The translations under genes were made by a program, and so were the position numbers. Source: Patellaria atrata CBS 101060 (lineage: Eukaryota). Taken from it: a DNA stretch of 64,000 nt. The DNA is taken from positions 1,219,016 through 1,283,015 of the forward strand of contig MU006095.1 of assembly GCA_010093705.1 (NCBI GenBank). Reading direction: 5' to 3'. The notes under the pieces were generated by a model. The model was not told where the DNA came from. It worked only from the letters and a program-made list of their open reading frames with translations, and ran no database searches. Of this stretch, positions 23,043 through 39,040 are shown in pieces. Within the stretch, counting starts at the first letter, position 1. Every line of letters begins with the position of its first letter.

Positions 23043-26000
23043 ATGTCATCGTTACTTTCATATCTCCCTTTGAAGCTCCCCAGATTTCTCCTACGTCATG
23101 TCTTGCTTCGATCTGGCCTTCTGGATACAAACACGATAGATGTAGACCGACTTGACTTTAAAGATGGCAGAGTAGTTTTGACTGACGTCCCCTTGCGTCT
23201 TGAGGTGAGAAATCGTAGGTTTATATACATTACTCAGTCCTGATTAATACCCGTTCTAGAAACTTGCCGCTCTCCTAAAATTCCCAGAGAAGCTTCAGCT
23301 GGAACAAGCCCGAGTCCTCGTTCTTCGAGTTACCGTCCCAATTTTCAATCCTCTTACCGAACGCACGATAGTAGAAGTAGAAGGTATAAAAGTTAGAATA
23401 CGACTGTTACCCGAAGATTGCATAGATAAAAACACGAATAATAAGGGCAAACACCCCAAGAGAGGCTCGCAGAGAAGGGCGAGTCCCCGCGGGATTGAAG
23501 AGGAGGATGAACTCCATATACCTACGTTAGAAGACGTAGCGGAGTCAATATACGATGAACAGCCTACATCAGAAAAGAGGAAGTTACAGGAAGTCTTTAA
23601 GTCGCAATACGAGTCTATGCATGAGTCTACGTTATCTGATGATGGCCAAGACGAGTATCCTGGTGGGACTGGCACTCCGCTGTCTGTACCTGACTTTATC
23701 GCAAACTATTTGAAGACTTTCGCCAAAGGATTAGCTGATCGGTTTGAGTTATCTGTACGCGGCATAGATGTTCAGCTTGACGTTGACTTACCCCCCGAAC
23801 ATCCCTCGGACAATGCAAGTCCCATATCCTCAGCCACATCCATAAACCTACATTTCGATGAACTTGGGCTTGAGAAAGCTTCCACGGGAAGTGCAACAGG
23901 CCACCATTCTCCAGAAACCTCGAAAGGTCTGAAAGTGCTTAAGAGGCCTGGAAAACGACAAGTCTATCTCCACAATTTTTCTGCGCAGTTGATATCGGAT
24001 GCTTCTCTTTTTGCAACACTTTCAAGAACGTCGAGTATTGCCTCACCAGTGGAAACTCACTCCAGTGGATCCAGTAGTCAACGACCGAGAAGCGAAGGTT
24101 CCGCTAGCCGAAGATCTAGTAGGAGTATCGAATCTACGGCTGAGCTCAAACAGGAAGTCCATCGAAGCGCTCTTCACGAATCTAAATCGTCAAGTGGAAG
24201 TGAGGTATACTCTGATGCGGCCGATCAGTCACCTCCATCTCCGCTTGCTTTGAAAGCGTCAAAGGCGTCTATCGCGACGGACGATGGTGATCGATTTGCA
24301 GACGCTGGCGATGATGAAGGTGAGAACCAGGATTTCTCCCACCCAAACGAGATCTTGCAGCATAGTACTCTTTCTGAGAGAGAGTTATACTCCAGTAGAG
24401 ACAGTATTCTTAGTGATTCCAATTACCTAGACTATGCTATCCAGAATGGTCTCTTCGAATCAACTCTGGGAGATCAAAACTTCAGCTCTTCACACCAATC
24501 AGTGAGTATGCAAGATAGTTCTACACTAGGTGTGGAACGGCTGCGTCAGGATCATAATATGCAAGAGTCTATCAGTGGATCTCAGCAGCTTCCAGTTGCA
24601 GACTCTCCTGCTGCGGGTAGTCCTCGTTCACATAGTCAAAGTCCTGAACCAATTACCTCACTATCAAAGTCTGATGAACACATACTACTGCATACGGATC
24701 CTAGATTACAAGAAGCAGGAACCGACAATATGGTCCAGGCACTGGAGGTCACTCGTGTACCTTCCAACGAGTCAAGCAATGCTTCGGATGAGACACCGAG
24801 CCCCATATCTGCGGAAGATTTATCTGAATCTAGGATATTCAGTCACGAGGAAGCCGAGAGTATGTATATGAGCGCAATGACCGATGTACAATCTGTTGAA
24901 AGTACTCCTCGTCTGAACATTCCGGGAGGTTGGGATTCCTCGAGCGAGAAAAGTGATAATTCCGATCATCAAAATGATAATCTACATGCTCAAACGCTAT
25001 CTATCGGAGCTTCTATGAAACTGACGGGTGCGATAGAGCATGGGGATGGCATCGAGACACCGCGGGCTAGAAGCCGTGCGACAAGTGATGCCCCGAGTTC
25101 TGCATCAAGTCTACCTACTGTGAACAAAGCTCATCTGCTAAATACGGAGAACACAAGTCCATCCCTAGCGTCTAAAATCTCAAAGCAGTTAATCAGTGGT
25201 GACAAGGTCTCCGTTTGGGTTCCTGATCATTTCTGGACAGGATATCTTAAAAAGGATCAACCGACGGAGGACGCTGAGAATCCTGATGAACGGTCGTCAC
25301 AATCGCCGAGTATGGAAGACTCGATATTGTTAGATTCATCTCACCAGAGCACATTGGGCTCATTTTCCCAGTATGCTCAGGTAGGTTCAACAGGTCACAG
25401 ACGCTGGAACTCGAACGACTCGAAACCTTCATCAAGGAAATTGCCATCAAAATCTTCACCTCAGGGCGACACATCGTCTCCAGTAGCTCCAACTGAAGGA
25501 ATCGAAGTTGATATTGGTGCCATACGCGGATATAGTGACATTTCCGCGGGCCGTATTGTAATGCAGATAGTCCAGCAAATTCAGTGTGCTTTTACCAGTT
25601 CCGGATCCGCACCTGTAGAGAAAACCCCCGAGTCCGATCAAACCGGCGGTGGACCGATGATCAGCGACATCAATATAAGTTATATCTGCTTTGCGCTCTT
25701 AGAACAGCTTAGGGGTTATGGCCTCGCGGTAAATCAAGACCCAGTCCCGCAGGATGTAGATCTAACAGACGACATCCTACTTCGAACCGACCTTAAGGGT
25801 ATCCGTATCCGCCCACAATTGGACTCGGATAATATTGTGGTTAGGGCAGATGTACGGCGGTTTACTTTTGGCCTCAAAGACGAGAATATACTCTCTTTTG
25901 ACGATACAATGAACGGATCCAAATCCGGGAGACCTGAGTCGGAACGTGGGAACGACATTGCGTTCGTTTACAAATTATCCCAAGGCATCCAAAAGGTCAA

Positions 26001-29000
26001 ACTGCTTAGTTCTCCGGTAAAGATCGATTTTGATGCGCAAAAGCTAGATGAAACCCTAAGCTGCTTCGGCGGCTTCAGTGGTATCTTAGAGCTCAGCAGT
26101 TCCATTACATCGACTAGTACAGTGCTTCCGAAAGAAGTCAAACCCCAGCCTCGACCTAGAGGCGTTCATTTTGTAATGTCTCCGAATGAAAAGCCCGTCG
26201 ATGCACAACCGGGTGTGTCAATCAAAGCAGAGATTGGTGGTGTATTTCTCGGCGTCAGGGGCAAAAGTTGCGGTATCGTGCTACGTACAGACATGGTCAG
26301 GATTTCGGGTACTGGAGATCATATGCGTCTACATGTACAATCTGTTAAAATCTCTGGGCCACATACTGGACCATATTCTGGCCAAGCTTCCGTAAATGTC
26401 GCAACTCGTGGTGTAGGTCTCGAATTTCTTTCAGCACCGGAAGAGAAAGACCTCGGGAAGCTATTATCGTTGATTACCCCTTCGAAAGACAAATATGAAA
26501 ATGATGACGATATCCTTGTTGAAACGTTGGTTAGACAACGACAGAAGGGCTCTATCATTCGGTGCGGTGTGAACTCTCTTTCTGTCGACATCTCAGACCT
26601 TGAGAGTTTTGATCAGTTCAAAGCTTTAGGCGCAGAGCTGACGAGACTTTCGAGCGTTACTAAATACCTCCCCGAGGACGATCGACCTGGTATTTTAAGT
26701 ATGATCTTTGTCAAGGACATCGGGACCCATATTAATGTCAACGACAAGTTAGGCGTATTCTCGTTCAATGCCCACAATACACAACTTGCACACGTAGGCT
26801 TGCCACCCCTTCTGGCACTGGAAGTTGGTAAATTGAGTGCTTCTCGAAATGATGAAGAGCAACTCATCACTGAAGTTTCTGCCTCTCACGGTTTCGAGCC
26901 GGTACCTATGTTTATGGCTCGCATGATTAGCGATGAAATGGACCCCACTGTAAAGATGAAGCTGTACAATATCTGTATTGAGTATAGAGTACCCACCATT
27001 ATGGCAGCTTTAGGATTAACCGAAGAAGAAATCTCAACGGAAGACCTAGCGGCAAGTATGGCGTCCTCAATTGCTACCGTTACTGGCCACTCGTCTCCAA
27101 AAGCTCTTACTCGACAATCATCTTCCAGTAGTGACTATTCGGATTCCTCCAAACGTCCCCTTCATTTGGATATTCTAATTCGGGATTGTGCTCTAGGGCT
27201 AAATCCTAGATGTTTGCCATCTCGAGGTCTATTTGTCTTCACCGACACACATTTTTCTGGAGCTTTACCCGATCAAAAGGGATTGAGTGCTACCTTAGAG
27301 GTCAGAAAAGCTTCAGTGCTGGTTATAGATAACATACAGAACTTCAACAGCAGTGAGGACGTTGTCCCCCAGAGATCGAGATCAAGTGTCACGGGTAGTC
27401 TACAGGTCAGAGAGCTATGTCACCGTGGCTATGTCTCCCTCAGTGAAATCAATTCCGCCAAGATTGCTGTCAACATTTCTCAAGGGAAGGAAGAAGAATC
27501 GCAATTCGTCGATGTGGAATTCAAAGATGATCTGTTCGTTTTGGAAAGTTGCGCGGATTCTACTCAAACACTAATTGGTATTATTAATGGGCTCAAACCA
27601 CCGATTCCACCATCGAAGGAAACAAAGTATCGGACAAATGTCCTTTCCATGGAAGAAATGATGGCATCTTTCACAGGCGACGCATTTGAGCGACCAGAAC
27701 ATACCAGTTTAGATCAGAGGCTGGATATGGACCAAGCTGATATAATCGAGGACGAGCTTCCCGCGAATCTCGAATACGTGGGCAGTTTCTACAATCCTGA
27801 AGCGCCGCCGACTTCAGAGGAGATTGCGGATAGCATGCTAGAGGACGACCTGTCGCACCTAGCCTCGCCACCAATTACACGTCCAATGGGACAGAGACCT
27901 CTATTAGAAAGTTTCCAAGAGCAGTACGAAGTCGATCCGGAGAATGAGCCGTTGAACATTGACGATGATTACTTTGGAGCGGAGTCAGAAGTTAAGGGTA
28001 ACGCCCGAAAATGGAATTCTTCGAAGAATCAATACAGCCTCACTAATGAGTATAAAGTCGAAGGCAGTCCTCTTAAGCTTCGCATCCGAGACGTTCATGT
28101 TATCTGGAATCTGTTTGATGGATACGATTGGGCTCAAACACGGGAGACTATCGAGCACGCCGTTGAGGAGGTTGAACGGAAAGCAGATGAGAGACGCAGA
28201 GCGCGACATACATCGATGGAAGAAGATGACGACCAGGATGAAGTTGTCGGCGATTTCCTCTTCGGATCAGTCTGGGTGGGCGTAGCGCCTAATTTACCCA
28301 CATCTGAGCTTAGACGCCAGATCAATCTTGAGATCAATGACGCCGTTAGCGAGACGGAGAGTTATGCATCTTCTACGGCATCTAGGTCGACCGTTCGAGC
28401 GAGTGGATCGAAGAGACCGAAACAGAGGAGACTGAAAATCGAGCGAAGCAAACGTTACAAAGTCAGGTTTGAGCTAGCTGGCGTATCTGCTGATATTGTT
28501 GTATTCCCACCTAACTCTGGGGAAACGCAAAGTTCGATCGATGTCCGCGTCCGTGATTTCGAGGTCATTGACAATATGCCAACTTCGACCTGGAAGAAGT
28601 TTGCAACGTACATGCATGATGCCGGCGAGAGACAGATGGGTAGACCCATGATTCATTTGGAGATGCTAAACGTAAAACCTGTCATGGAGCTCGCAGCGTC
28701 TGAAATTGTACTTCGGGTGACTGTCCTACCTCTTCGTCTCCATGTAGATCAAGACGCCCTAGACTTTATCACCCGCTTTTTTGAATTCAAGGACGAGCAC
28801 GCTGAAGAACCGGCGGTAAAAGCAGAACAACCCTTCCTGCAGCGAGTAGAAGTCAACACCGTCCAGCTCAAGCTCGACTATAAACCCAAGAAAGTCGACT
28901 ATGCGGGGCTCCGCTCTGGCCACACCACTGAATTCATGAACTTCTTCATCCTTGATGGTGCTGACATTACCCTAAGACACTGCATCATCTACGGTATATC

Positions 29001-29760
29001 TGGCTTCGACAAGCTCCACAAGACCCTCAACGACATATGGATGCCAGACGTCAAACGCAACCAGCTACCAGGCGTGCTCGCTGGTCTCGCACCCGTACGC
29101 TCTCTCGCCAATGTCGGCGGCGGCGTCCGCGATCTCGTCTCTATCCCCATCAAAGAGTACCAGAAAGATGGAAGAATCGTTCGTAGCATCCAGAAGGGCG
29201 CTACGGCCTTTGCACGCACCACGACGAGCGAAATTGCACGCCTTGGCGCAAAAGTCATGATAGGCACGCAAACAATATTGCAGACAGCCGAAGGCGTCCT
29301 CTCCCCAACCCACCCGAACTACTCCTCCTCCCCCGCCTACAGCACCTCGGACGACAGCGGCTGGGAAGACGTCGGCGCCCCGGAACCTTCTCGCGCCGTC
29401 TCGCAGTACGCGGACCAGCCCATCGGAGTCATGGCGGGCTTCCGTGGTGCCATCAGGAGTCTGGAAAGAGATCTGATCGTGGCTAAAGACGCGATCGTGG
29501 CCGTTCCAGGTGAAATTATGGAGAGTGGGAGTGCCGGTGGTGCGGCAGGGGTGCTGGGCAGGAGGGCCCCGACGATTATCCTGCGCCCGGCGATTGGGTT
29601 GACGAAGGGGGTTGGAATGGCGCTTATGGGGGCCGGGAATGCGTTGGACAGGGAGAGTAGGAGGAAGATCGAGGATGTGAGTAAACCCTTCTGCTCTTGG
29701 AGCTCATTTTCGATTTTAGATATGTTTACTGACTTGTTGCAGAAATATAAGCGATATTGA
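23043..29760 (+). CDS. ATG2: Autophagy-related lipid transfer protein 2
   Basis: >2000 aa. Chorein-N-like start, LESCADSTQTL (CAD motif), WNLFDGYDW, LPLRLHVDQDAL, LDYKPKKVD, DQPIGV, ending IED|KYKRY* (in-frame intron at ~29677-29742). Confidence 0.95.
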
Positions 29761-31003
29761 TTTGAAGATGAGGGTGGTGGGTAATGAGGAATGTAGGTTT
29801 TCACGGCTCGGTGTTGCCTTTTAAAGCGTTTGGACTTAATTTGATCATCGACTTTTCTTTCACTATAATCTTGCATAGCGATGGTGTCAGGGAGTTCACA
29901 TCATACATCATATTTTGTCGTTCTTTAGCGTGGGGAAAGGGGGCGTTTCGTTCTTCTCTTATCTGGCAGTGTGAAGATGCAATGGAGGATATGGCTGCCA
30001 TTCTCAAATCGTTGTACGCCAGACGCATTGAATTACCCCCTTTTTCCGGTACGAGACGTGCGAGGAATATTGTATATCCCTTTCCTGTGTTTCTACACTC
30101 TTTTACTGCCATGTGGATATATACACTTGGTTGTACATAAACAGGCGTCGAGCAGAGCTCTAAGGAATTAATTACGCAGATGAGTGGGGTTATCCGAGTT
30201 TTGCTGATTCGTAGGAATCTTTGTTTATGTAGCAGTAAGTTGTACGGTGTCACGCAGACTGTACGGTGTTTTATGTCTCGACTGCTCTCGTGGGGAATGT
30301 TATACAATTTACAGCCGGTTCACGGCTGTCAGAATATACTGGAAGAGCTTCTGTACGGCTGGTGAAGTGCTTTAGCAGGAGGAAAAAGAATTTGCACCGT
30401 GCTCAGGTATTCGGCCAATGAGCTGAGTGTGTAATTGGTCTTGATTGTAAACTCAGTACTAAATATATACTCGACACTGACCGTATATTTATTATGACCA
30501 CTTACCCGATCTTTCGCCTCATAAACGCGTAAGTGGCGAACCGCTCTTTCAGATCAAATCCAGACGGACGCAGTTTATCTGACGCCTGGAAAGATCAAGA
30601 TGAAGGGTGTTTGGTGTACGGGTGCAAAATAGATGATTTGCAACTCAGTATTCGCGTGGTGGGTTTGAGTTTAAGGAATGTCCTCACGGACTAAGCTATC
30701 TAAGAACTTACAACAGTCATGGGAGTTACAAGTGTGGAGGAGGGTGAGATGATAGAACCTAGTCTCGAGGTCTAACACTCCCTGGAGTGATTCAGATATA
30801 AGGAGTAGTTAGCAAGATATACCTACTTTTGACATGTTACGTTTGTCGTCCTGAGTACAAAATAGCATAAAGTAGCGATATGACCAGTTGAAAGCTGAAA
30901 AATTCTAATGCATCGATCGTGGATGTCTTCCATGGAGTCAGGTAGGGTGTGTACACTTCTTAGAAGCGAAGAAGTAGTGATGGGAGGATGTTTGGCTTTA
31001 TAG

Positions 31004-32435
31004 GGTAATACTAGGATCTCTCGTCGAACGTAGTGCACGTTCCGCGGATCTGTATACGGCAAACTTCCTCTTGCTAGAGTAGTTTCTATCGTGATAGGGT
31101 AATATCTATGACTTTTGTCGAACGTAGGGATCTTCTGCTGCTCTGGTATCGGTAAGTACTTTATAGGGGTCGTTAAATCAGATGTTTATGTCAGTCAGCT
31201 TCATTGGGTAATAGTTGAAGTCATCGTTAAACGTATGCGGTCAGTGGACCGGTCTTACGGTACTTGTCTCATCTAACAAGTTTCATACCTGAAAAGGTAA
31301 TATGTTGAACTTCCGTCGAACGCGGTAGTCTCACGTGGCTCAGCTATCGGTCGGCGGTTGTGTAACATTTGTCAGATATAGGGCAGGAATTCAATGGCCA
31401 AATGCGGTAATACTGAGAAAGTTCGTCGAACCCAGGTGGAAAGTGTTGTTCAGTCCTCGGAGAGCACTTTCACCAAATGGTCCTTAGCTATGGGTATTGG
31501 ATTGCCAGATACAGTGATAACTTCATATTCCGTCGAACGCAGGGGACTTGTGTGGCTCGGGTGTCGGTAAGCACTTTCTCTGGGAATCTTTAAAAAGTGG
31601 ATATTAGATAGACGGATATGGTAATATTGGAATATTCGTCGAACGTAGGTGGAAACTATGTTAGCCCGTGGAGAGAGCACTTTTTCCCGATACTGCTTCC
31701 CGTCAAGTCGCCGATCATGGGGGATATACTTTTCATTACTGCTATGTAGTATTAACCTGAATGAGTATATGTTCAAAATGTTTCATCGAACATCTCTCCT
31801 GGGGACTGCATTACTGCGAGCGCTTTTGAGTCCATATCCGTGGGCTAGTAATAATGCATTTCCCGACCAGGTAACTTTAAGATTCTTTGTCGAACGTAGC
31901 ATCTATCCATCGATCCGAAGTGGATTATGTAGTTAGTACTCCTAGAGTCCATATCCATAGGCTAGTATAATGCATTTCCTGAGAAGGTAAACCTAAGGAT
32001 TTTCGTTGAACGTAGGATCGGCTCCATCGGTTCTTGCATGCACATTCGTGGGTTCTTTGGTCGAAAACCTGGCGAAACTACCATATGACAGCTTTCCAAG
32101 TGCTAGGCTAGATGAGTTGTTATCTGACTTTCCTGTTGAGCGAACGAGTCTTTCTGTTGCTCGGCTGAATGGTAAGCCCCCCTTTTTTCGTGGTGGTCCT
32201 GGGCCGGTTCTTCATGGGAAATCCCCCGTTGCATGAGCACTATAGTTCCCTTAAGTAAAGCAAAAGAAACGGCGCAAGATAGAGTTTCAGACTTGATGTA
32301 TCCTATTTCGAATGAAGGAAAAGGTTAAGGGGATAATGATGAGGAGTCGTTGATAATTCCAGGATGCCGGAGAAATCTATCCAGACGCACCTAACCTAAT
32401 CAGGTCCTCTGCATTGCCTTCGTTGAACGCAGCAG
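31004..32435. repeat. Non-coding array of ~11 spaced bipartite motifs, consensus GGTAAT-N13-GTYGAACGYAG
   Basis: Core starts at 31023, 31117, 31226, 31315, 31425, 31532, 31638, 31785 (degenerate), 31889, 32005 and 32422. In 9 of 11 copies RGT lies exactly 16 nt upstream of the core. Confidence 0.85.
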
Positions 32436-32473
32436 TTTCTGTAACGGCTGCGAAACCATCTCCGTACAGTTGT

Positions 32474-32582
32474 TATACGGTTGAATGACAGTTTCTGGTT
32501 GCTAAGCGCTTCTATATCATAGCCATCTAGTAATCTAACCGTTTATTGGTAGAAAACGCTTTAAAATACGAGATGTGATTTG
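32474..32582 (+). repeat. Degenerate direct repeat A (partner at ~35850-35958)
   Basis: GGTTGAAtGACAGTT..CTAAgCGCTTCTATATCATAG..TTTATTGGtAGAAAACGCTT..TGTGA matches GGTTGAAaGACAGTT..CTAAcCGCTTCTATATCATAG..TTTATTGGAAGAAACGCTT..TGTGA. Confidence 0.8.
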
Positions 32583-32735
32583 TGCAAAAGTGGTTTTCAG
32601 CGTGATACGGTCTGCTTACAATTACCGTGTGGTAGATATACGGTTGGCGTATGGACAAGTTGACGGCAGAATAACGGTCATGATACGGTTTATAGGATGT
32701 AAACGGTTATTTTATCGGCAACTCTAAAAGATACT

Positions 32736-32965
32736 AAGCGTTTGAAAAAATTCGGTCCGAGGGCATGGACCGAACCATGTCACGAGTTGGTTACCGTAGG
32801 AACGCGACTCCTGATCGCGCCCTTTCACCTAGAAACTGAACTTTAGCAACCTTACCTAAAATTTCTATATCACACACGAATCGACAAAAAATTTTTAAGG
32901 AGATTTTAGATAAGTTTATAAAATTACTCTGTCTCTAACCGTTAAGGAGATGACTAAAAAAAATC
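32736..32965 (+). repeat. Degenerate inverted repeat B, left arm (partner 35973-36198)
   Basis: AGAAACTGAACTT (32831) is the reverse complement of 36085-36097. GGAGATtTTAgATAAgTtTAT.AAAT.ACT..TCTAaCCGTTAAG..AAAAAAAATC matches the reverse complement of 35973-36040. Confidence 0.8.
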
Positions 32966-33792
32966 TCGACCTTTTCAAAGAATATCTCAAGACTTCTCCA
33001 TGCCAAGATGTCAGATATAGCTCGGGCCAGGGGTAACGTGCAGCAGATAAGACTCCAAAACTGGCTACTATAGGTAAGTACTTGTGAATCATAATTATTC
33101 GTTTTGTTAGGTTTCATATGTGTATGGTCTGTACTGCCCACCAAATGTCTCAGCAGAGCCTTAAAGAGAAGTCGGGGAGTGACGAAGAAACCCTAGTGAA
33201 GAGATCATGGTCTTTTGATTCAGATTTGAAGGTGATCATAAATGATGAGCTGTATAAAATGACTTAGGGTGGATCGGGGCTCTAAGATTTTCTGAAACGG
33301 AATGCTTTAATCAGCTGTACAAGTGATAGGTGTCTGGCGTCACCACAGCAGATTGGCATGGTGCTTATCCTGATATATCAGACTGTTGGATTAGTTAAAT
33401 GCCCCTCACAGGTTTAGCGACTGCAAAATGACATGTGGTGTGGGTAACGAACCGGCAGTCTGGTTGCACGTCAACGGTTCCTTTGTCTGTTATTATGGTG
33501 TCATATACCGACATCCAGTACCTTTGCGCGGAGCAATGTTGTTTGTGCATGAGCACTGAGACCACGCCACTCAACACCAGGTTTTGTTCTGGTGTAAGAA
33601 TACGGTGAGTAATTGGTATATTCGTCATTTGTCTTGCTGAGGATTGGGCAGTACGCAGTATCTGCAAGCCCATATTATTGAAACAATTTGAAAACGGTGC
33701 GGGACTCTTAGGGCAATAGCGTCATAATTGTAGAGGTATTCACGCTTCCTTCCACCTTCTACAACATCTTATCCATATCAAGGAAAAACGTA

Positions 33793-35807
33793 ATGCTAGT
33801 GTCCAGCGACTCATGGAAGGCTAAGACCAAAAAGAAGACGAAAACCTTAGCTAAGGTGCCTTCCGAACGACGATTATCGAAACACGAGCTAGACAAGGTT
33901 GCTAAGCAGAGGGACCTCACTAGCGCCCTCTTTGACCAGTATCTCGAGACTCATGAACGCGATATCGTGAGGCAAGACGCAACTGTGATAGTCGAAAAAG
34001 TGCAGAGAGAACTCACCGTGAGGGAAACCACGTTGGCCTTCTGTAAAGCGGCAGCCATTGCGTATCGGATTGTACGTCAAGCACACCCTATCCTTGCTCC
34101 ACTTGGCTCAGGTTGAATTAAGTAGAACAATTGCTTGCATGAGATATTTTTTCCTCAAGCTATTGAAAGAGCAGAGGAACTAGAGAAGTACTATTAAAAA
34201 AAATGGAAAAACCATGGGACCACTTCATGGGCTTCCAATTAGTCTCAAGGACCAGTTTCGCGCCAGAGGGAACGATACCACCATGGCATACATTGGATGG
34301 ATAGGTACCTACGAAAGCTGCAAGGATCCGGAGCTCGTACACAACGTCAACAGTCAGGTTGTTTGCGAGCTCCTAAGTCTTGGGGCGGTTTTGTATTGCA
34401 AGACCAGTGTTCCATAGACGCTCCTCCTTGGTCAAACCGTCAACAATCTCATAGGCCAAACTCTAAATCCAAATAACCAAAACCTATCATCTGAAGGATC
34501 TTCTGGAGGAGAAGGAGCCCTCCAAGCTCTGCCAGGCAGTGTTGTCGGCTTTGGGACTGATATCGGGGGGTTCCTAAGAGTCCCTGCAGCATTCAACGGG
34601 ATATTCTCCCTCAAACCGACTCACTCGAGATTATCGTATCGAGGTGTTGCTAATGTGATTCCTGGGGAAACGACGTATTCATCCTCCGTCGGGGTTATGG
34701 GAACTTCTCCGGATACTATACATCTCGTTCTTCGTTCGGTTGTTTTGACTCAGCCTTGGATTAAAGATTCGAACGTAGTGCCGATACTTTGGGCGGGAGT
34801 ACTGTGTAAAAGATACTCTTTCAAGAGTAGCATCAAATTAAAAGACTAATGACAACAAACCCCTCAAGCTTGGAATCTTATGGACTGATGGCGTGGTTAC
34901 CACCCAGCCACCAATTGCCGTGGCCTCAGACTTGTGGTGGATGTTGTTAAAAGTGCTGGGCATAAGGTAATAGAGTATCATAATGCGTTTTGAAGAGCTG
35001 CGATTACAGTATTTTTGCGCCAGGTTGTAAACTAGGATCCCCCGGATCAGCGCACCGCTAAACGGGTCTATGTAAGTACAGGCGATCTGCTTCACCAAAC
35101 CATCATGTAACGCTCACATCTAGATAGGTAGCGTTTCTCAAGGCAGACGGAGGCTACGACATTCACCAGCAGCTTGATCTTTCGGGAGAACCTCTTGTGT
35201 CGCCTCTTCGAGACGCTTTCCGTCTGAAGAATCCAATGTCCCTTCATACTTAGCAAAGTCTGACGATAGAAGGACGAGACTACGAAGCAGCGTACTATTG
35301 GAATTCCACCGCTGATGTTGATGGTAAGTAGACTCATTAGGTTGGAAATCGCACTACTAACATCTTACAGGGCAGCTTGTTAATGCCGTAATCATGCTCG
35401 TTGCTCCGCATGCCGCTGTCATCCCCGGGAAGTTCTATCATACAGGTGACTTGAGAGAAGATCCGGTTGAAACTAGACGCTGACCATTCGAAGCATATAC
35501 CGAGGTCATCAACTTGATGGACTACAGAGTTGTTGTAATTCCAGTTACGAAGGCGGATAAGTCCATCGACAAGGCGGATCCAAGTTACACGCCCCTTAAT
35601 GACGTGGATGCCAAAAACTGGAACGCATGTGAGCATTGCTCAGAACCAACTACGACACTAGACTAATTTTCAACTCTAGATGATCCTGAAATATATGATG
35701 GCGCTCCGTTGGGTGTTCAGATAGTGGCGAGGAAGCTCGAAGAGGAGAAGATATGGGCAATAGGAAAGATTGTCCACGAGATCTTGAAAGCGGCCGGGAT
35801 TCAGTAA
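33793..35807 (+). pseudogene. Amidase-signature family (general amidase/acetamidase-like) pseudogene
   Basis: NCLHEIFF, GPLHGLPISLKDQF, YCKTSVP*TL, EGSSGGEGA, GFGTDIGGFLRVPAAFNG, YDGAPLGVQIVARKLEEEK. Lesions: TAA at 34195 plus a poly-A frameshift, TAG at 34415, and catalytic Ser to Phe at 34571. Confidence 0.9.
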
Positions 35808-36904: not shown

Positions 36905-39040
36905 ATGATGTATTCTATTCCATTATTCACGGTGCTTGCGTTTCTGTTTGGAGGTGTTGCGCAGGCGCAGTTTTTCCCTCCCGAACCCTCGGGCGTCACA
37001 ACGTTGGAATCGCAGTTTGGAGGCGGGATCACTATATCGTATAAAAATGTAAGAAGCTCAATTTCGCAATCTAAACTCAATTAGTAGCTTATGATTATAT
37101 CTGTAGCCCGGTATATGCGAGACGACAGATGGCGTCAAATCCTACGCCGGCTACGTCCACCTCCCTGCGGGAACCCTCTCTGACCTGCAAGAAGCCCAAA
37201 ACTACTCCATAAACACTTTCTTCTGGTTCTTCGAATCACGCAACGACCCAGCCAACGCTCCACTCAGTATCTGGATGAACGGCGGCCCCGGCTCCTCCTC
37301 TATGATCGGTCTCTTCCAAGAGGTCGGGCCCTGCTACGTGAACATTGATTCCAACTCGACTGTGCTGAACGAGTGGGCTTGGAATAGAGATGTCAATATG
37401 CTGTTTATCGATCAACCGAACCACGTGGGGTTTTCGTATGATGTGCCAACGAATGGAACTATGGATGTGTTAAGTGGGTCAGTTATAGAGGATGATTTTG
37501 AAGACGGCGTACCGGAAAGGGAGTGGGATTGGACGGAACTGGTAGGGACGTTTCCGAGTGGGAATCCGTTGGCTACAGCGAATGGGACGGTTACGGCGAG
37601 TCATGCTTTGTGGCATTTTGCCCAGGCGTGGTTTCAGAATTTTCCGCAGTATAAGCCGAATGATGACCGGATATCTATCTGGACAGGTAAGAAATAGGGA
37701 ATGCGATGTTGAGGGAAGTTGCTGAGTTAGTGAATGCAGAATCCTATGGCGGTCGATACGGTCCCCAGTTCACAGCCTTCTTCCAGGAGCAAAACGAGCG
37801 TATCCTCAATGGCACCTGGGACGATGTTGGTGAAAAGTACATCATCAATCTGGACACTTTGGGCATAATATGCGGTTGTATTGACTTGCTGATACAAGCG
37901 CCTGCATATCCTAAAATGGCTTTCAATAACACCTACGGTATCCAAGCGATCGACGAATCCGACTATAGCTCTGCCGTTGATGCAGTAGAATCAGAAGGTG
38001 GCTGCCTCGATCTTGTAAAAGAATGTAGGCGGCTGGCTGCCGAGGTGGATCCTGATAATAGCGGCGATGTTGATCGAGTTAATCAAGCTTGTACGGATGC
38101 TAACGATTTTTGTGCCCTATACGTCGAATCACCTTATGTGGACTATTCGGGCCTCAGCTTTTATGACATCACCCAGAATTCCACCACCCCGTTCCCACCG
38201 CCTTGGTATCAGGGCTTTCTCTCGCAACATTGGGTTCAGGGTGCGCTTGGTGTTCCGATCAACTACACCCAGTCCATTGAATCCGTTTACCGTGCATTTC
38301 AGAGTACTGGAGATTACGCCCGTGGCGGATTCCTCGAAGATCTGTCCTATATTCTCGATAGTAGAATCAAGGTCTCCCTAGTATATGGTGACCGTGATTA
38401 TGCCTGTAACTGGATTGGTGGTGAAGATGTTAGTTTGGCCGTAAACTACAGCAACTCAAGGGAGTTCCAAAACGCCGGATATGCGGATATCCAAGTCAAT
38501 GACTCTTACGTTGGTGGTCTAGTTCGTCAATATGGTAACTTCTCCTTTGCGCGTGTATTCGATGCCGGCCACGAGGTTCCCTCCTACCAACCAGAAACCG
38601 CATATGAAATTTTCCGAAGAGTAATGTTCAACAAAGACATAGCAACCGGTGAGACTGATACAATCGAAACCCCAGATTACGCCACCGAAGGTCCTTCGGA
38701 TACGTGGGGTACGACAAATAAAGCGACTGAACAACCTGAAAACATCTGCTATGTTCTGAGCCCGAATACATGTAGGGAGGATGATTTGGAAGGGATATTC
38801 TCTGAAGGAGATCCACCTTTGATCCGGGATTACATTGTGATCAATAATTATACCAGAGGTCTATTGGATGACTTTGAAGATGAGCAGTCCACAACAACGC
38901 CGTCAGGGAGTTCTGGGCCCTCCTCAACGGAAGCGGTTCCAAGCGCGACGAGTTCAGGTGCAGCTTCAGGGAACGTGCTTGTGGAAGCTTGGAGCTGGCT
39001 CACAGTGGGTGTAGTATTTGCTGGCATGACCTTGAGTTGA
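36905..39040 (+). CDS. Serine carboxypeptidase (peptidase S10, carboxypeptidase S1-like), secreted and probably GPI-anchored; two introns
   Basis: Signal peptide [59 protein letters not shown], a Ser/Thr-rich stalk and a hydrophobic C-terminal tail. Confidence 0.93.

Follow-up and report, generated by a model that had tools for sequence, protein, structure and literature searches.

A tandem array of short, two-part conserved cores set among diverging spacers was found in a 64,000-nt stretch of the fungus Patellaria atrata CBS 101060 (assembly GCA_010093705.1, contig MU006095.1, positions 1,219,016 to 1,283,015 of the forward strand). This stretch is referred to below as the window, and all coordinates are positions within it. 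The array spans about 1.4 kb without genes, inside the roughly 4-kb gap that separates an ATG2 gene from an amidase gene, and holds 10 solid copies of GGTAAT-N13-GTCGAACGTAG, plus one or two that are decayed, all on the plus strand, between 31004 and 32432. Judged from the sequence, the core appears to be under purifying selection, as opposed to the spacers, which drift freely. Tentatively, we read the cores as a row of putative two-part docking sites for one factor.

Array architecture and core conservation

The preliminary description of this DNA reported about 11 copies of a unit of about 30 nt, and the strings that it quoted do stand where it placed them. When the pattern GGTAA-N14-GTYGAACG was searched across the 64-kb window with up to two mismatches allowed, 11 matches were obtained, of which 9 lay inside 31004-32429, every one on the plus strand. 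Shuffled sequence gave an expectation of 1.90 matches per window and a maximum of 7, and 11 or more matches were reached by 0 of 100 shuffles. With its gap of 13 nt, the copy at 31620 escaped the N14 pattern; it was caught by the 3' half and by the repeat search. The 3' half alone (TCGTCGAACGTAG) is present in 10 plus-strand copies between 31021 and 32432. A 45-nt core profile was built from ten copies, whose recovery (E values of 7e-9 to 6e-6) is by construction, and the next-best match in the window had an E value of 0.37. Neither the profile nor the pattern detected any further core copy in the 64-kb window, and no look-alike stretch was seen in the other genomes scanned. The start-to-start distances between cores (89-116 bp) include the values of 94, 109, 89, 110, 107 and 116 bp reported previously, and the earlier statement that no open reading frame (ORF) spans the array was borne out by an ORF check. 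Tandem Repeats Finder reported no array, because the units are too diverged. The copies and their spacers are as follows.

31004..31033, plus strand: core copy 1, GGTAAT..GTCGAACGTAG, found by pattern and profile
31098..31127, plus strand: core copy 2; the following spacer is homologous to that after copy 6 (70% over 77 nt, z 10.6)
31207..31236, plus strand: core copy 3; 3' half decayed (GTTAAACGTAT), terminal AG lost
31296..31325, plus strand: core copy 4; end is CGCGG, terminal AG lost
31406..31435, plus strand: core copy 5 (GTCGAACCCAG); the following spacer is homologous to that after copy 7 (z 6.6)
31513..31542, plus strand: core copy 6; 5' half is AGTGAT
31620..31648, plus strand: core copy 7; one base fewer between the halves
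31763..31795, plus strand: very decayed copy (TTTCATCGAACATC)
31870..31899, plus strand: core copy 9 (GGTAAC..); recent duplicate of copy 10 (77% and 91% blocks, z 9.9)
31986..32015, plus strand: core copy 10 (GGTAAA..GTTGAACGTAG), found by pattern, repeat search and profile
32403..32432, plus strand: outlying copy 11; 3' half kept (TTCGTTGAACGCAG), 5' half is GGTCCT; profile E value 1.9e-6
31034..31986, plus strand: spacers between cores; mostly mutually unalignable, unstructured and without coding signal

A copy had also been placed near 31767. A trace of it is present, with ATCGAAC at 31785, but it is so decayed that the profile does not recover it.

In a fixed register, mean pairwise column identity was 0.8-0.99 in the GGT and GTCGAACG columns, about 0.6 in the TTC that precedes the 3' half and 0.2-0.4 in the core centre. 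To the right of the core it was 0.26-0.32, which is near the level of unrelated sequence. Such a per-column comparison of motif and spacer had been proposed beforehand, with even divergence across the unit taken as the mark of an ordinary minisatellite; the divergence proved uneven, the best-kept core columns standing at 0.8-0.99 versus 0.26-0.32 in the flanks. The claim that the spacing of the half-motifs is kept also held, since the offset between the half-site starts is 19 nt in nine copies and 18 nt in one. The spacers measure 65, 80, 60, 81, 78, 78, 222 and 87 nt. Their strong divergence, likewise noted previously, holds for most of them: with alignable defined as more alike than shuffles at z >3, only 4 of 36 pairs downstream of the core and 2 of 36 upstream of it could be aligned. 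The alignable pairs belong to copies 2/6, 5/7, 5/9, 1/3 and 9/10, reach 70-91% identity in the repeat search, and several represent duplicated blocks that the earlier account had not separated from the rest (31093-31169 and 31508-31584, 70% identity; 31851-31903 and 31967-32019, 77%; 31417-31442 and 31630-31655, 85%). These pairs indicate that the array grew by duplication of single units and of multi-unit blocks, and growth of this kind implies that the spacers were not acquired from elsewhere. Three or four copies are visibly decaying.

The resemblance to clustered regularly interspaced short palindromic repeats (CRISPR) that had been drawn in the preliminary description did not survive this comparison. 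The likeness is limited to conserved repeats that alternate with dissimilar spacers, whereas the host here is a eukaryote, the repeat centre is variable, the spacers are 60-87 nt long with one of 222 nt, and some of them are duplicates. Moreover, no cas-like gene was found among the 34 ORFs of the gap, whose neighbours are the eukaryotic ATG2 and the amidase.

Uneven conservation might also arise without function, if an old minisatellite had decayed neutrally and its decay had been made uneven by mutation bias (words immune to repeat-induced point mutation, RIP), by chance or by local homogenization. Consistent with this, the array is a single locus in the 64-kb window, has no detectable product and includes the decaying copies; furthermore, the raw RIP indices of the array are mildly RIP-like (TpA/ApT, 1.03; [CpA+TpG]/[ApC+GpT], 0.83), and the core is devoid of CpA and TpG. 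However, masking the cores abolishes the RIP signal, with CpA, TpG and TpA in the spacers at 1.10, 0.95 and 1.02 of expectation, and homologous spacer pairs differ by 17 transitions versus 40 transversions. The transversion excess and the near-expected spacer dinucleotides lend no support to a RIP-degraded or RIP-protected relic. In addition, A/T positions outside the core show no conservation even though RIP cannot act on them, and each core still holds three CpGs (CpG is at 2.1 times expectation in the core versus 0.82 in the spacers). Homogenization by gene conversion over just 30 bp, with flanks that cannot be aligned, would, in turn, be a process with no known mechanism. We therefore regard neutral decay as improbable. 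Since chance and RIP both fail to account for the pattern, selection on a two-part site, as the preliminary description had already suggested, fits better than uniform satellite decay, with a core that is far better kept than its surroundings.

Docking sites and mini-introns as possible explanations of the core

In the reading that we tentatively favor, a noncoding unit of about 100 bp would have been copied head to tail, partly as multi-unit blocks, in an old local duplication. Purifying selection would afterwards have kept only the 30-bp core, that is, GGTAAT, 12-13 free bases with a pyrimidine-rich TTC at their end, and GTCGAACGTAG. The cores would then be ten docking sites, all facing the same way, for a single sequence-specific factor whose two reading heads are a fixed distance apart; a two-domain Myb-type, paired-type, transposase-derived or multi-zinc-finger protein would be a candidate. 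The array could thereby serve as a multivalent platform between ATG2 and the amidase gene, with boundary, terminator, barrier and enhancer among its conceivable roles. We infer that binding is the constraint, and any such role is inferred in the same way. Several observations speak for docking sites: the fixed distance between half-sites, which contrasts with spacers varying from 60 to 87 nt; the clustering of 9 pattern matches on one strand within 1.4 kb, versus 1.9 expected in 64 kb; and the null results of the searches for RNA genes and coding sequence. The 3' half contains the near-palindrome TTCG-T-CGAA together with the 4-bp palindromes TCGA and ACGT, and such palindromes are typical of sites that are read on double-stranded DNA. 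Because the 3' half is near-palindromic and CpG-rich, a DNA-level reading is slightly preferred to a transcript-level one, although this preference is a guess.

Other observations weigh against docking sites. Among the three pairs of recent duplicates, the core is kept only about 2-fold better than the flanks (by our own count of these pairs, 10 of 60 core positions differ, versus about 35-40% of flank positions). Neither a candidate binding protein nor a motif match lends support to the putative site, and the likeness to Reb1 (CGGGTAA), to the CENP-B box and to the tRNA B box is only partial. The spacing of the units (89-116 bp) displays no helical phasing, and the locus is single within the window. 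Finally, nothing about a binding site would call for G/GT at its start and AG/G at its end (the slash marking the edge of the block) at a constant length of 28-29 nt. These constant ends favor a splice-type explanation instead.

The preliminary description had not remarked that GT opens the conserved block and AG closes it at this constant length, a feature that raises the possibility that the cores are miniature intron-like cassettes. On a plus-strand transcript, each 28-29-nt core would be a minimal GT-AG intron or a composite splice-signal cassette, in which the conserved ends correspond to a donor (G/GTAATA) and an acceptor region (yTTCGTCGAACGTAG/G). The spacers would be the exons of a noncoding, fast-evolving or dead transcript, and the excised 29-mers might themselves be the product. 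Indeed, GT starts the block in 9 of 9 copies and AG ends it in 7 of 9, the length being 29 nt in eight and 28 nt in one; outlying copy 11 likewise runs from GT to AG. A G precedes the GT in 8 of 9 copies, conservation stops directly after the AG, and branch-like CTRAG words occur in several centres (ACTAGG, ACTGAG and CCTAAG), as CTGAG does in the intron inferred at 37687-37739 in a carboxypeptidase gene. Furthermore, after removal of the cores, six of eight spacers are multiples of 3 (60, 81, 78, 78, 222 and 87 nt) and these are consecutive (post hoc binomial P value of about 0.02), and frame 0 of the six in-phase spacers contains 5 stops versus 8-14 in the other five frames. On the other hand, 29 nt is about half the length of two inferred local introns (66 and 53 nt), and we know of no introns as short as 29 nt in filamentous ascomycetes. 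The G that is usual at donor position +5 is missing, and the distance from donor to branch would be only about 10 nt. The AG has been lost in copies 3 and 4, and stops are present in three of the six in-phase spacers. The codon score of the spacers (-0.065) does not depart from its null (-0.078 +/- 0.059) and thus gives no coding signal, and no database protein was found for the longest spacer ORF or for the plus-frame peptides. Taken with these objections, the intron-like explanation seems rather unlikely, yet it is the chief alternative to docking sites.

A best-path spliced ORF of 836 nt could be assembled on the plus strand, versus 290-530 nt in shuffles; it required 12 ad hoc introns and was set aside as overfitting. 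In the two sequencing runs that contain the locus, both consisting of DNA contigs (word depth of about 320-450x), it is present only in its unspliced genomic form, which, for DNA, has no bearing on expression.

Very doubtful is the more specific proposal that the cores are tandem 28-29-nt GT-AG mini-introns whose excised pieces, with constant ends and a variable centre of 10-12 nt, act as small RNAs. If it were true, these would be the shortest class of intron known in filamentous ascomycetes and a new route to a small-RNA family; if the cores are spliced out at all, the lower size limit of fungal introns would be pushed and intron-derived small RNAs could be revealed. The cores resemble spliceosomal introns in their GT...AG ends, in the G on both exon sides, and in conserved ends around a free centre. 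The introner-like elements of Dothideomycetes were also considered. These elements have been described as longer than regular introns and as forming stable folds (PMC3609843; PMC4457414). They are near-identical, numerous and dispersed inside genes (PMC3609843), whereas here there is a single tandem array of 28-29-nt cores with no shared fold. Within the window, introner-like elements were therefore rejected as a candidate.

At 33066-33102, between short ORFs of the gap, is a 37-nt segment whose ends resemble those of an intron (GTAAGTACTTG...TTTTGTTAG). This segment and the 29-nt cores prompt the question of the minimum intron length in P. atrata.

If the cores are docking sites, the array would be a naturally occurring bait, with ten copies of the site, for an unknown fungal factor that is sequence specific, and its defined position between two housekeeping-type genes would make pull-down and deletion straightforward. 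Arrays that keep only a short core may form a class of cis-element that is invisible to annotation and missed by tandem-repeat finders, as this one was by Tandem Repeats Finder.

Transcript, transposon and coding explanations

The array could also function as RNA, as a plus-strand long noncoding RNA in which the cores are repeated linear motifs for an RNA-binding protein. The Xist A repeat and NORAD are repeat modules of long noncoding RNAs in which a short core is kept, the linkers drift, and function is exerted through many docking copies. The array shares with them tandem units that keep a short core amid drifting linkers, but its core sequence is unrelated to theirs, and its units are about 100 nt long with a 30-nt two-part core and no hairpin. 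An RNA platform would fit the single orientation of the cores and the short conserved blocks amid free spacers. Weak evidence is also provided by the G/T-rich plus strand at 29.4-32.8 kb (GC skew of +0.05 to +0.37, AT skew mostly negative). The core contains GUAA and GUAG, which are words bound by Nrd1/Seb1-type termination factors. However, one orientation is expected from any tandem duplication, the near-palindromic CpG-rich half-site is more like a DNA site, and the units have no common structure. We consider this explanation quite unlikely.

For a polycistronic precursor of structured small RNAs of about 100 nt, which the preliminary description had offered as another option, the searches gave no encouragement. 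At E values of up to 10, Rfam returned two chance-level matches, both outside the array, and ARAGORN found 0 tRNA genes. RNAalifold predicted 0 pairs and hence no common fold for nine aligned units, and nine spacers folded no better than shuffles (z of -1.48 to +0.92). A cluster of known small-RNA genes (small nucleolar RNA, tRNA, ribozyme or other Rfam family) was accordingly rejected, as neither Rfam nor ARAGORN matched the array.

It is very unlikely, in our view, that the array is related to a transposon, with the cores as repeats bound by a transposase or an antisilencing factor of a nonautonomous or decayed element. The 30-bp two-part sites do resemble the paired-type sites of Tc1/mariner transposases, which counts in favor of such an origin, and clusters of TACGG/AACGG words flank the array (30243-30354 and 32441-32702), recalling the subterminal AAACGG repeats of hAT elements. 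Against it, no terminal inverted repeats surround the region, where only two pairs were found, 72-79% complementary and neither flanking the array; no transposase, integrase or helicase domain was present in the 34 ORFs of the gap; and no second copy exists in the 64-kb window. Nor was a recombinase domain detected in the 4-kb gap. That the cores are sites of a transposase or recombinase, an option raised in the preliminary description, may nevertheless hold.

A metagenome scan for two adjacent units returned 83 loci, and 79 of the 80 listed were single chance-level matches. The sole multimatch locus among these 80 of 83 (L076) consists of an unrelated 42/84-nt tandem repeat, and it was rejected, its extra similarity to the core being within chance. 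The repeat, at positions 200-900 of that locus, holds the strikingly core-like GGTAATATCCACATTACTGTCGAACGTAAT, and its reverse strand reads as a 14-residue repeat (ITFDSNVDITTAEY). The likeness was judged to be chance because the search pattern forced 21 bases.

The core might instead have been conserved as protein, in a repeat-protein gene that has since died. Read on the minus strand, the core gives CTA CGT TCG ACG, four codons, ATT ACC and often then TCN GGN AAT, that is, L-R-S-T-x4-I-T-x-S-G-N; on the plus strand it reads V-I-x4-F-V-E-R-R. Most cores leave both frames open, and synonymous variants occur in some cases (TCG/TCA, ACG/ACA, ATT/ATC, GTC/GTT and CGT/CGC), the two frames sharing third positions; between copies 9 and 10, moreover, a single codon position accounts for 8 of 14 differences. 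Yet no significant 3-periodicity was found (identities by phase of 0.46, 0.48 and 0.41; permutation P value of 0.18), every unit contains stops, and the frame shifts from unit to unit. Of ten copies, nine have GAA and six have CGT, which makes the third positions too uniform for ancient constraint at the protein level. The minus-frame profile matched only 4 of 1.84 billion representatives, all of them translated simple tandem DNA, and the plus-frame profile had no match among longer proteins. The PDB matches of the minus-frame profile were confined to the word LLRST of designed beta-trefoils, and its sole Pfam match was DUF1899 at an E value of 0.16; the 95-codon ORF at 31649-31933 had no match among proteins of similar or greater length. 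The power of such protein searches is limited by the shortness of the profiles. Comparison of homologous spacer pairs in six frames with BLOSUM gave no consistent best frame. Likenesses of the peptides to leucine-rich, ankyrin and WD40 repeats, noted by eye, were not confirmed in any case. We therefore consider that a repeat-protein relic is largely refuted, and highly improbable as an account of the array.

One entry of the representative library (P0002) is a 198-residue "protein" of RSTKAEAITSAT repeats between variable stretches, which matched the minus-frame profile only through RSTK..IT. It resembles a repeat-spacer array, possibly CRISPR, that was translated in error.

Related systems and genomic setting

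Several known systems offer partial parallels to a row of docking sites. Mouse ribosomal DNA carries the Sal-box terminators T1-T10, which are bound by TTF-I, and fungi have Reb1 sites; both are same-oriented arrays that stop polymerases or replication forks. Shared with the present array are about 10 copies of an asymmetric site of about 18-30 bp, in one orientation and with irregular spacing, downstream of a gene; however, the array here is not ribosomal DNA. The GGGTAAT of copies 1-3 is partly like the Reb1 core CGGGTAA, at best in 6 of 7 bases and only in some copies. In fission yeast, clusters of tRNA-type B boxes are bound by TFIIIC and act as chromatin boundaries. Each core carries on its minus strand GTTCGA, the core of the B box, and there are about 10 repeats in a noncoding interval, but the flanks do not agree (a G before the core and a C at the position of tRNA base 61), and there is no A box, tRNA or Rfam match. 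The CENP-B box of alpha satellite, finally, is read by a transposase-derived protein. Its TTCG-N4-A is present in the core and its CGGG part is absent; here, too, a motif is kept in diverging tandem units, although the array is not a centromeric satellite and comprises ten units rather than thousands.

The genes on either side of the gap are the following.

23260..29760, plus strand: ATG2, upstream neighbor (PF13329, E value of 2.6e-260 on the last 586 codons)
33794..34849, plus strand: start of the amidase gene, downstream neighbor (PF01425, E value of 1.4e-28 on 34418-34846; the ATG at 33794 is our reading)

Both genes appear to contain introns. The last intron of ATG2, inferred by eye, lies at 29677-29742 (66 nt, GTGAGT..ACTGAC..CAG) and is followed by the stop codon at 29758-29760; an intron of the serine carboxypeptidase gene at 37687-37739, also assigned by eye, is 53 nt long (GTAAGA..CTGAG..CAG). 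The strict fungal intron consensus GTRAGT..CTRAC..YAG had 3 matches in the window versus 4-10 in shuffles, and splice signals in the window seem to be loose; a permissive survey yielded 5278 candidates and was too unspecific. Within the gap, none of the 34 stop-to-stop ORFs reached the Pfam cutoff. A scan for bacterial-type promoters and terminators, irrelevant to a fungus, stayed at chance level.

From the 3' end of ATG2 through the whole gap (29400-32800), the plus strand displays a sustained excess of G over C (skew of up to +0.37) and, for the most part, of T over A. This skew could mark plus-strand transcription through the array.

Clusters of the words TACGG(T), TAACGG and AAACGG occur on the plus strand on both sides of the array, at 30243-30354 and 32441-32702. 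The left cluster contains TGTACGG three times, and the right cluster contains RATACGGT plus TAACGG or AAACGG about seven times. In the window as a whole, TACGGT occurs 30 times on the plus strand, with 7 of these occurrences at 30-33 kb. The flanking TACGG/AACGG clusters may be sites of the Myb type or the hAT type.

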